From Giardia intestinalis (lineage: Eukaryota), in the NCBI GenBank assembly GCA_000002435.2, contig AACB03000028.1: a stretch of 15,856 nt of DNA. One strand, 5' to 3'. The notes below the pieces were generated by a model that had not been told where the DNA came from, did no database searches, and was given only the letters and a program-made list of their open reading frames with translations. Below, in pieces: positions 2,005-3,895 of this stretch. Numbering within the stretch: the first letter of the stretch is position 1; the number at the start of each line of letters is the position of its first letter. Made by a program: the position numbers and the translations under genes.

Positions 2005-2041
2005 GCTGTACAATGTGTGATAGAGGGTGATAGTATGATAG

Positions 2042-3895
2042 TGGAGTGTGATATGTACAAAGGCCAGTAATGGACTGTGCACTGCTTGTAAGACAGATAA
2101 CAAGTACATATTCCAGAACAGGGCAGACAAGGTGACCCCTGGTAGTGAGTGCATCCTGTGCTCTGATATCAAGGGAGCGAATGGATATACGGGAGTGGCC
2201 AACTGTCTCAAGTGTACGGCACCAGGGAATGCAGGACCTGCCACGTGTAATACCTGTCAAGAGGGGTACTTCCTAAACAACAAGCTTTGTAAGCCATGCG
2301 AGGGGAACTGTGCCACCTGTGAGACATCGGCGACCCAGTGCACATCGTGTCCAGAGGGGAAGTACCTCAATGGGAATCAATGTACTGATAGCTGTGGTAA
2401 TGATAAGTATGCTGACCCGGAGTCGGGAACATGCAAGGCATGTAGTACGATACACGCAGAGTGCACGGCATGCTCCTTCGACAAGGCCACGGGGAAGCCA
2501 AAGTGCACTAACTGCGGGACCAATAAGACCCCCAGGACGGCCCTCGACGGGACATCGACCTGCGTGGCGAAGACGCTTGAAGGATGCGAGGGCGCTGACG
2601 AGGCCTTATTTATGAAGGAGGACAAAACGTGTGCTCTTTGTAGTGATGTGACAGATTCAACTCTTGGTAACGAAGGAAAGGCCAACTGCAAGACATGTAC
2701 GAAAACAGGAAGTGACAATCCAACCTGCTCAGCCTGTCTCGATGGATACTTCTTTGATAGTGGTACTAGTACATGTACAGACAAGTGTGGTGATAACTGT
2801 GCCACATGCTCTGTTGCTGGTGATCCAAATAAGTGTGAAACCTGCAAGACTGGATACTTCTTAGTAACTACTACAGATCAACAGGGGAAGAAGTGCGTCC
2901 CATGCGATAGCGTAGACGATAAGGGTCGCGAAGGCTGCAGTGTCTGCTCTAACAACGGTGCTTTCAAGTGCACTGACTGTAAGCCTAACTATCGCAAGGA
3001 GGGCAGTACTGGCTCTGTCACATGCACCAAGATCTGTGAAGATGATACTGCCTGTGGAGGAACTTCTGGTGCCTGCGATGCAATAGTGATTGATGATAAG
3101 GGTGTAGAGCATCATTATTGCTCATACTGTGGAGAAGCTAATACGTATCCTATAGATGGGAAGTGTAATAGTGCTAAAGCAAATAATCAATGTGATCAAG
3201 GTGTATGTACACAATGCACTAACAACTACTTCTTGTATATGGGAGGTTGTTACAAGGTTGATACAGTACCTGGACAACATATGTGCAAGACAGCAGCCAA
3301 CGGTGTCTGTACTGCTGTTAATGCCAACAATAGGTACTTCATAGTCCCTGGGGCAACCAATCAGAATCAGTCTGTATTGGCATGTAGCAACTCCCTTGGC
3401 ACACTAGTAGGCACTGGTGATACCTCTAAGGCATATGTGGGGGTAGATGGCTGTTCGGCATGTACGGCCCCAGCAGCTCCATCTGAGACTGGTATGACTG
3501 CTGCTGTGTGTACAGCGTGTACCAACAACAACAAGCCCAACCTGGCTGGGAGCGGGTGCTTCGCATGTACCGTTGACGGATGCTCGCACTGTGGAGCAGG
3601 CGATAAGTGCGAGGCCTGTACCAGTAAAGACCAGAGGCCGAACACAGACGGAACGAAGTGCATCGCCTGCAATATCGACGGGTGCGTCAGGTGCAGCGAG
3701 GAGAACAAGTGCGGCCAGTGTGGGGACGACTACAGGCTGGAGGGTGAGGCGTGCGTGTCCACCAAGCCCAGCGGGGGCAACAGAAGCGGCCTCAGTACTG
3801 GTGCCATAGCAGGGATCTCCGTCGCTGTCATCGCTGTCGTGGGGGGCCTCGTGGGCTTCCTCTGCTGGTGGTTCGTGTGCAGGGGGAAGGCGTGA
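2042..3895 (+). CDS. VSP cassette U2. It is an intact 617-codon ORF with one GGCY motif, ending in the transmembrane helix plus CRGKA. It has no ATG or signal peptide; the ORF opens directly after the TAG at 2039..2041.
   Basis: The ORF track gives 2048..3895, but its M is a GTG codon. The ORF extends to 2042 and the first in-frame ATG is about 180 codons in. The protein is cysteine-rich with CXXC pairs and ends ...[39 protein letters not shown]. Confidence 0.85.
   Translation, partial: WSVICTKASNGLCTACKTDNKYIFQNRADKVTPGSECILCSDIKGANGYTGVANCLKCTAPGNAGPATCNTCQEGYFLNNKLCKPCEGNCATCETSATQCTSCPEGKYLNGNQCTDSCGNDKYADPESGTCKACSTIHAECTACSFDKATGKPKCTNCGTNKTPRTALDGTSTCVAKTLEGCEGADEALFMKEDKTCALCSDVTDSTLGNEGKANCKTCTKTGSDNPTCSACLDGYFFDSGTSTCTDKCGDNCATCSVAGDPNKCETCKTGYFLVTTTDQQGKKCVPCDSVDDKGREGCSVCSNNGAFKCTDCKPNYRKEGSTGSVTCTKICEDDTACGGTSGACDAIVIDDKGVEHHYCSYCGEANTYPIDGKCNSAKANNQCDQGVCTQCTNNYFLYMGGCYKVDTVPGQHMCKTAANGVCTAVNANNRYFIVPGATNQNQSVLACSNSLGTLVGTGDTSKAYVGVDGCSACTAPAAPSETGMTAAVCTACTNNNKPNLAGSGCFACTVDGCSHCGAGDKCEACTSKDQRPNTDGTKCIACNIDGCVRCSEENKCGQCGDDYRLEGEACVSTKPSGGNRSGLSTGAIAGISVAVIAVVGGLVGFLCWWFVCRGKA
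2408..3895 (+). repeat. Copy 1 of a 1488-bp near-identical block A, the 3' three-quarters of a VSP. Copies 2 and 3 are at 9342..10829 and 14344..15829.
   Basis: Identity starts at TATGCTGACCCGGAGTCGGG and runs through the CRGKA stop. Only a few SNPs separate the copies, for example CCAAAG versus CCGAAG. Confidence 0.8.
3800..3892 (+). other. Representative transmembrane helix plus invariant CRGKA cytoplasmic tail of a VSP (U2). The same module ends every unit.
   Basis: It is a hydrophobic stretch of about 26 residues, [25 protein letters not shown], followed by CRGKA and TGA. An NRSG sequon lies just upstream. Confidence 0.7.

Follow-up and report, generated by a model that had tools for sequence, protein, structure and literature searches.

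The DNA analysed here (hereafter the window) is a stretch of 15,856 nt from Giardia intestinalis contig AACB03000028.1, and nearly all of it is variant-specific surface protein (VSP) sequence on the + strand. It holds seven complete head-to-tail units, named U1 to U7, and two partial ones, and the array runs off the window at both ends. The conserved VSP 3' end, which comprises the transmembrane (TM) domain, the CRGKA tail and a TGA stop codon, occurs eight times, ending at positions 68, 1990, 3895, 5782, 8905, 10829, 13946 and 15829. Consecutive units are joined by junctions (J1 to J8) of 49-60 nt, in which a poly(A) signal precedes a short GTGATAG-like repeat rich in stop codons (Table 1). 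The original prediction, made from the letters of the sequence, had described six such units; it overlooked U6, near 10884, together with the junction that precedes it (10830-10883).

Table 1. Units and junctions of the VSP array, by position in the window
Feature	Position	Strand	Remarks
U0, 3' end (TM domain and CRGKA region)	1-68	+	Conserved 3' end match at 40-68
Junction J1	69-117	+	49 nt; extended VSP poly(A) signal ACTTGGGTAGTGAATGC (from 68), then GTGATAG-type short repeat
U1, 5'-truncated pseudo-VSP	118-1990	+	Many 1-nt frameshifts at ~840-1560
Junction J2	1991-2041	+	51 nt; poly(A) signal and three GATAG motifs; TAG end at 2039-2041
U2	2042-3895	+	Uninterrupted 617-codon frame, from WSVICTKA to CRGKA and stop
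Junction J3	3896-3946	+	51 nt; same sequence as J2
U3	3947-5782	+	Uninterrupted 611-codon frame
Junction J4	5783-5833	+	51 nt; same sequence as J2
U4, long form	5834-8905	+	Extra ~1.15 kb module
Junction J5	8906-8958	+	53 nt; extra GTGATAG-like copies; TAA end at 8956-8958
U5	8959-10829	+	One frameshift near 9235
Junction J6	10830-10883	+	54 nt
U6, long form	10884-13946	+	Start disturbed by small indels; 1002 open codons from 10938 to CRGKA
Junction J7	13947-14006	+	60 nt; expanded variant; TAG end at 14004-14006
U7	14007-15829	+	Copy of U2
Junction J8, start	15830-15856	+	Cut by window end

The best protein match was a VSP of Giardia lamblia ATCC 50803 (XP_001705784.1), with 99.5-100% identity over 427 residues counted from the first ATG of U2. 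This entry is an old RefSeq model of 427 aa which starts at that internal ATG (codon 191). U2, U3 and U6 matched the Pfam VSP family (PF03302) with E values from 1e-35 to 1e-84 and presented 28, 28 and 44 CxxC motifs, respectively, and U2 also carries a YMGGCY motif at 3235-3252. All eight 3' ends matched the conserved TM/CRGKA end, two of them with a G-run one base short.

The truncation point of the units was determined from an alignment with the intact VSPs P0003, P0004, P0007, P0030, P0046 and P0032. Intact VSPs begin with a leader such as MLLIALHLVTSILAAPC or MFQLIPLFVASALMAAC and continue with a first Cys-rich module whose last residues are GYFLFMGGCYK. The first codon of the units, the W of WSEIC (WSEICTKAEGG), aligned with approximately residue 105 of the intact proteins, just past FLFMGGCYK. 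Missing from the units are therefore ~105 codons, which correspond to the signal peptide plus an N-terminal Cys-rich module of ~88 residues. At the DNA level, a full-length VSP (L001) was homologous to the units only from AGTGA(C/G)ATATGCACAAAGGC onward. The units retain the remainder of the CxxC ectodomain, together with the TM domain, the CRGKA tail and the extended poly(A) signal specific to VSPs. The original prediction had read them as silent cassettes or pseudogenes without a signal peptide; as a description of their structure this was correct, but the defect is larger than the signal peptide alone.

Other arrays (P0006, P0019, P0029 and P0008) keep LFMGGCY, which places their truncation a few codons upstream of the WSEIC point found here. 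The old RefSeq models derived from other arrays begin with MLYSDSDS...LLFMGGCY (P0006, P0019 and P0029) or with MGGCY (P0008 and P0041). The MLYSDSDS N-termini are translated array junctions, read from an ATG within the poly(A) signal AGTGAATGCTGTAC, while the P0008 and P0041 models start at the Met of FMGGCY. Since P0006, P0019 and P0029 start inside a junction, the database 'proteins' of these names are artefacts that arose when other arrays were annotated.

In six of the seven complete units an in-frame stop codon immediately precedes the open VSP frame; in U6 the start is broken by indels. At 118, 2042, 3947, 5834 and 14007 this stop is the TAG that had been predicted, but at 8959 it is TAA. 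The earliest in-frame ATG lies at codon 49 of U1 (position 262), codon 191 of U2 (2612), codon 131 of U3 and codon 195 of U4, and in U5 and U7 no in-frame ATG occurs ahead of a frameshift. The earlier statement that the units lack an in-frame ATG for more than 100 codons thus applies to U2, U3 and U4 but not to U1, and the first Met of U2, which had been put at about residue 180, is indeed late, with codon 191 as its exact position. The Met residues of the program-made open reading frame (ORF) list are GTG starts (2048, 4037 and 5924) or internal ATGs (262 and 6508), as had been said. An ATG in frame with U2 at 2003, within the poly(A) signal AGTGAATGCT, reads MLYNV, two stops, RVIV and two further stops, so that stops separate it from the body. 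Met accounts for 0.65-1% of these proteins, giving P = 0.12-0.29 for the Met-free run, which by itself is therefore unremarkable. Moreover, the seven junctions are copies of one sequence and represent one event that was later duplicated, not seven. The observation takes its weight from homology, that is, from units that start at approximately residue 105 of intact VSPs.

The VSP initiator PyAatgTT, searched for as PyAATGTT, had no match on either strand of the window. A three-frame translation of the junctions and a six-frame scan of the window found no Met plus hydrophobic stretch in or beside any junction. The junctions contain no A/T run of six or more and no Giardia intron motif, and their G+C content is 40-43%. 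On these points (no unit with a usable start codon or signal peptide, no hydrophobic leader in any spacer frame, and no Giardia intron signals) the original prediction was borne out. As a control, a solitary VSP gene from an independent assembly (L004) presented ttttaATGTTG with the TAATGTT initiator, the leader MLLAIYFAMGALAIEC and the poly(A) signal ACACTTAGGTAGTAAAC, and its 3' flank is unrelated DNA with no GTGATAG junction.

Several hidden sources of a 5' end were considered and rejected. A signal peptide in another frame was discarded, as the six-frame scan of the window returned only two Met plus hydrophobic strings (2370 and 12016), both internal and outside the VSP frame. A spliced upstream exon was likewise discarded, as [AC]CT[AG]AC[AC]CACAG occurs nowhere in the window and GTATGT only within unit bodies. 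Every junction carries CAATGTG (2011-2017 in J2), one mismatch from CAatgTT, ~29 nt before the frame opens and with its ATG out of frame. This could be a relic of an initiator, weak since the motif occurs 20 times in the window. The related view of the junction as a decayed 5' end, with CAATGTG at approximately the distance of a signal peptide, was rejected since the unit start aligns with approximately residue 105, and the 20 occurrences of CAATG[TG]G in the window weaken it further. A structured RNA was rejected as well, there being no Rfam match at gathering thresholds in the window.

At the 3' end, in contrast, the units have retained their signals. Rodriguez-Walker et al. (2022; 10.1101/2022.03.07.483299) described an extended VSP poly(A) consensus, ACUUAGRUAGURAAYRY, located a few nucleotides from the stop codon. 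The signal in the array, ACTTGGGTAGTGAATGC, has one mismatch to this consensus; it is present at all seven complete junctions, where it overlaps the stop codon. From one unit to the next, the reading frame of the upstream unit meets five to eight stops, its own TGA counted (seven in J2), which rules out a simple read-through fusion. In Giardia, mRNAs start only a few bases from the AUG, and a signal peptide is needed to make a surface protein. With no initiator, start codon or signal peptide, the units would yield no surface protein on their own, and we infer from these missing signals, with support from the literature, that they are probably not expressed as surface antigens by themselves.

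VSP genes whose start ATG is missing were also seen elsewhere. Two VSP genes in independent assemblies of the European Nucleotide Archive (ENA; L001 at 9940-10010 and L005 at 4130-4160) keep the full leader-coding region but have the start ATG replaced (CAGCCTTT and CAGTGTTG), which is either a sequence variant or another way in which a VSP can lose its start.

To what extent the bodies of the units are intact depends on how their frameshifts are read. U2 (617 codons), U3 (611) and U6 (1002, from 10938) are fully open. In the other units all interruptions are frameshifts, with no nonsense substitution, and open segments in different frames tile the units. The frame of U4 is broken by three 1-nt deletions in homopolymer runs (~6473, ~8160 and the G-run at ~8890). 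Over its first ~350 nt, U7 differs from U2 by 26 deletions, mostly of 1 nt, as against 5 substitutions, and U1 shows almost no amino-acid change relative to P0004 across several frameshifts. This pattern of 1-nt deletions looks like base-calling error, not pseudogene decay; the deletions at the 5' end of U7 probably reflect poor sequence quality, and the real units may all be open frames. The practical caution is that some seeming pseudogene frameshifts in the window look like base-calling errors.

In three stretches (14067-14350, ~840-1560 and 10884-10975), 1-nt deletions are almost the only differences from sister copies or from the corresponding intact VSP. The G-run in TGCAGGGG(G)AAGGCGTGA lacks one base at 40-68 and at 8877-8905, which shifts the frame just before CRGKA, so that U0 loses its CRGKA frame; this may be a homopolymer error or real slippage.

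The ends and the bodies of the units have diverged to very different extents. Mean pairwise identity was 98% over the first 50 nt after the stop codon (the junction) and 94-98% over the last 100 nt of the units, as compared with 57-79% in the bodies. For six pairs of bodies, the Nei-Gojobori method gave synonymous divergence (dS) values of 1.29-2.08, ~1.3 in five of the six and near saturation, and non-synonymous divergence (dN) values of 0.31-0.45. The resulting dN/dS ratios were 0.21-0.32, and 87-97% of the Cys columns were conserved. Untranslated sequence diverging in place would have left junctions as diverged as the synonymous sites, and dN/dS near 1. Neither was seen; the bodies therefore diversified under protein-level selection. 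Such bodies between homogenised ends require recombination, not decay in place.

In agreement with this, units that are otherwise ~60% identical share tracts of 361-1558 nt with 0-3 mismatches. These tracts, like the excess of deletions, were detected with a low-gap-penalty aligner and a diagonal scan, while standard MAFFT and BLAST settings concealed both. The tract between U2 (2408-3938) and U5 (9342-10872) spans 1531 nt with 3 mismatches, that between U2 (2501-3748) and U7 (14436-15683) spans 1248 nt with 2 mismatches, and U4 (7341-8896) and U6 (12380-13936) share 1558 nt with no mismatch and one 1-nt indel. A further tract of 726 nt without mismatches (3578-4303 and 5465-6190) crosses a junction, and the first 357 nt of U4 are the same as those of U3.

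Segments are also shared with intact VSPs that carry signal peptides and lie on other large contigs (P0003, P0004 and P0007). U1 matched residues 433-748 of P0004 at 1044-1987, including 127 consecutive identical residues across a frameshift, and residues 137-211 of P0007 at 214-438, while U3 matched residues 369-545 of P0003 at 4760-5290.

An independent ENA contig (L002) contains a unit that has junctions of the same type on either side. The junction motif GGTAGTGAATGCTRTACARTG had no match in JGI metagenome contigs, and two ENA contigs with VSP loci of another lineage (L003 and L005) contained no such junction and are uninformative.

Larger rearrangements are also visible in the layout of the array. 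The extra module of ~1.15 kb in U4 and U6 (7440-8770 and 12480-13810), which makes both units ~1000 codons long, is identical between the two and 96% identical to the C-terminal part of XP_001707661.1 (P0094). The stretch 6835-10857 (the 3' part of U4 plus U5) matched 11889-15856 (the 3' part of U6 plus U7) with 93.5% identity over 4 kb, a higher-order repeat which suggests duplication of a two-unit block. Extra GTGATAG-like copies occur in the junctions at 8906-8958 and 13947-14006, with a Tandem Repeats Finder (TRF) period of 20 at 8929-8971, so the junction behaves like a small unstable repeat. On the minus strand, opposite the VSP frame, there are ORFs of 113-366 aa that begin with TTG or ATG, for example at 3367-3708, 5254-5595, 8645-8986, 10301-10642, 15302-15643 and 10338-11438; they recur because the underlying segment is repeated, and nothing marks them as genes.

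Taken together, our results indicate, with a probability that we put at roughly 85%, that the window is a VSP linear array of G. intestinalis (assemblage A, WB-type, from WB or an isolate nearly identical to it) made of seven pseudo-VSP units that is driven by recombination and is most likely a silent archive. Each unit is a VSP gene minus its first ~105 codons; gone with them are the signal peptide and the first Cys-rich module, as are the PyAatgTT initiator and the A/T-rich region upstream. The units would change by homologous recombination, through unequal crossing-over and segmental gene conversion, and exchange would take place among units as well as with intact VSP genes elsewhere. The homology for these events may be provided by the near-invariant block that extends from the 3' end across the junction into the first ~20 codons, and by any shared internal stretch. 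The likely role of the array would be that of a silent archive which feeds tracts into expression-competent VSP genes over evolutionary time. Such use as a donor is plausible but not proven; the contrast between junctions and bodies, the dN/dS ratios and the shared tracts all favour it, and a donor role is inferred here as it has been in the literature. We do not think that the array is the switch mechanism itself.

Several points weigh against this interpretation. The frameshifts in U1, U4, U5, U6 and U7, if real, speak for decay. The matches between the cassettes and the intact VSPs P0003, P0004 and P0007 are at the protein level only, and the shared tracts could mean that intact genes were copied into the array. 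Concerted evolution inside the array, of no benefit to the parasite, could account for the high identity of the junctions. The silence of the units is deduced from the missing signals and the literature, and VSP switching has been ascribed to epigenetic or RNA interference (RNAi)-like control, not to DNA rearrangement (PMC8957917).

The alternative that survives best is that the units are dead relics, the non-functional debris of unequal crossing-over from a VSP gene truncated once, with signs of selection that were inherited, ends kept alike by concerted evolution, and no donation to other genes. We consider this possible, although clearly less probable than a silent archive. Adam et al. (2010) named 'remains of discarded vsp genes' as an alternative (PMC2996952), and units without expression signals, frameshifts in five of the seven, and a 726-nt identical tract over a junction, as expected from plain unequal crossing-over inside the array, are all consistent with it. 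Relics would not, however, be expected to keep open frames of 611-1002 codons without nonsense codons, as U2, U3 and U6 do, and the interruptions elsewhere are all 1-nt indels, mostly in homopolymers, the excess of deletions in U7 again having the appearance of read error. Nor does decay account for dN/dS of 0.21-0.32 beside a junction divergence of ~2%, or for long segments that match intact VSPs on other chromosomes.

A role at the RNA level, in which low-level sense or antisense transcripts of the array feed an RNAi-like pathway that limits expression to one VSP, with the conserved 3' region as shared target, appears quite unlikely. Antisense VSP transcripts are abundant in WB (10.1101/2022.03.07.483299), RNAi components have been linked to the control of VSPs (PMC8957917), and the units share a near-identical 3' region of ~100 nt that might serve as such a target. 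Against this, neither strand of the window shows sign of a promoter, no Rfam family was matched, and the preserved long open frames and dN/dS well below 1 would be left unexplained. Neither the relic nor the RNAi reading is exclusive, both being compatible with the anatomy described here.

Expression of the units from internal ATGs, as in the 427-aa RefSeq model, from a non-AUG codon, or through transcription that starts at an upstream first gene (read-through or polycistronic) is highly improbable. Proteins were called from internal ATGs in the 2007 annotation (P0001 and P0065), each unit has its own intact poly(A) signal, and most units are in frame with their upstream neighbour; however, the stops between units, the lack of an initiator and signal peptide, and the inability of an internal-ATG product without a signal peptide to reach the surface argue against it, re-annotation demoted such models to pseudo-VSPs (PMC7000408), and the equivalent G. 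muris arrays are untranscribed (PMC7641422). Just as improbable is an assembly artefact, with the head-to-tail order or chimeric units arising from mis-joined reads of a repetitive family: stretches with many 1-nt deletions and almost no substitutions, a window that starts and ends inside a repeat, and the tendency of arrays to break assembly (Adam et al., 2010; PMC2996952) would fit it, but the same junction occurs eight times with small real variants and also in an independent ENA contig (L002), and arrays persist in the PacBio chromosome-scale assembly (PMC7000408).

Within the silent-archive interpretation, one further proposal can be made about the junction block, namely that the 3' end, the poly(A) signal, the GTGATAG-type repeat and the first ~20 codons form a dedicated recombination module and not a passive scar. 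We regard this as unlikely. If it were true, the module would actively promote cassette shuffling and the transfer of array tracts into expressed VSP genes, and Giardia would diversify its antigens by a true silent-cassette pathway beside epigenetic switching.

Linear arrays make up roughly half of all VSP-like sequence in Giardia and are the main cause of breaks in its assemblies. Whether they are junk or a working archive, a question posed since 2010, bears on the renewal of the antigen repertoire and on VSP-based vaccine ideas.

Silent cassettes of surface antigens are known from other pathogens. The Borrelia vls and Neisseria pilS cassettes and the Anaplasma msp2 pseudogenes are likewise promoterless, start-less tandem cassettes with constant ends, and the array in the window has the same layout of promoterless units with constant flanks (94-98%) around variable bodies (57-79%). 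For these bacterial cassettes, experiments have demonstrated unidirectional segmental conversion into a single expression locus; nothing comparable is known for Giardia, and the likeness is one of analogy only. A further trait of vls- and VSG-type cassettes, tracts common to cassettes and expressible genes, is present here at the protein level (U1 with P0004 and P0007, U3 with P0003). The silent VSG arrays of Trypanosoma brucei resemble the window in being a large silent archive of arrayed, often defective antigen genes with mosaic tracts, and in both a variable body lies between constant flanks, which in T. brucei are the upstream 70-bp repeats and the conserved 3' end. They differ in that switching occurs by copying into a telomeric expression site, and the proteins are unrelated. 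No expression site is known for Giardia, where switching is ascribed to epigenetic or RNAi-like control (PMC8957917).

Closer parallels come from Giardia itself. The pseudo-VSP arrays of G. muris are not transcribed and show sequence exchange with intact VSPs (PMC7641422). Like the window, they consist of tandem VSP copies that lack signal peptides, and their phylogeny is indicative of recombination or gene conversion involving intact VSPs. In contrast to the arrays of G. intestinalis, which are not preferentially telomeric, nearly all of them adjoin telomeres, and their tail is CRGK.

The closest counterparts are the linear arrays of G. intestinalis. The original prediction had considered the array notable because Giardia was not known to use silent cassettes, a claim that does not hold, since both the arrays and the cassette idea were published by Adam et al. 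(2010; PMC2996952) and the G. muris arrays are alike (PMC7641422). Adam et al. (2010) reported that linear arrays contain over half of the vsp genes of WB, that the regions between members average 60 bp, that some pairs of units share long stretches of 100% identity and that no downstream member has the initiator, and proposed that such members are 'cassettes for recombination' or 'remains of discarded vsp genes' (PMC2996952). Xu et al. (2020) described pseudo-VSPs in arrays without start codons, pseudo-VSP being the term of the WB re-annotation (PMC7000408), and Rodriguez-Walker et al. (2022) reported that pVSPs in arrays lack a start codon, that pVSPs carry the extended poly(A) signal, and that they may serve as a reservoir (10.1101/2022.03.07.483299). 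A linear array is defined as at least two adjacent head-to-tail vsp copies with a mean intervening distance of 60 bp, ranging from overlapping to 241 bp, and in about half of the arrays the first member has an upstream non-coding region and an initiator (Adam et al., 2010, PMC2996952; Xu et al., 2020, PMC7000408). The window presents seven full units, all on the + strand, with junctions of 49-60 nt and with initiator, proper start codon and signal peptide missing. The likeness to the published arrays extends to head-to-tail copies, gaps of ~60 bp, start-less downstream members, CRGKA/poly(A) ends and 100%-identity stretches, with no substantive difference apart from a truncation, at WSEIC, that lies a few codons 3' of that in other arrays. 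The array is thus already known as a published pseudo-VSP linear array and represents no new kind of element; it offers a clean local illustration of one, with near-identical junctions, bodies saturated at synonymous sites, dN/dS of ~0.2-0.3, kilobase-long identical or near-identical tracts and segments in common with intact VSPs.

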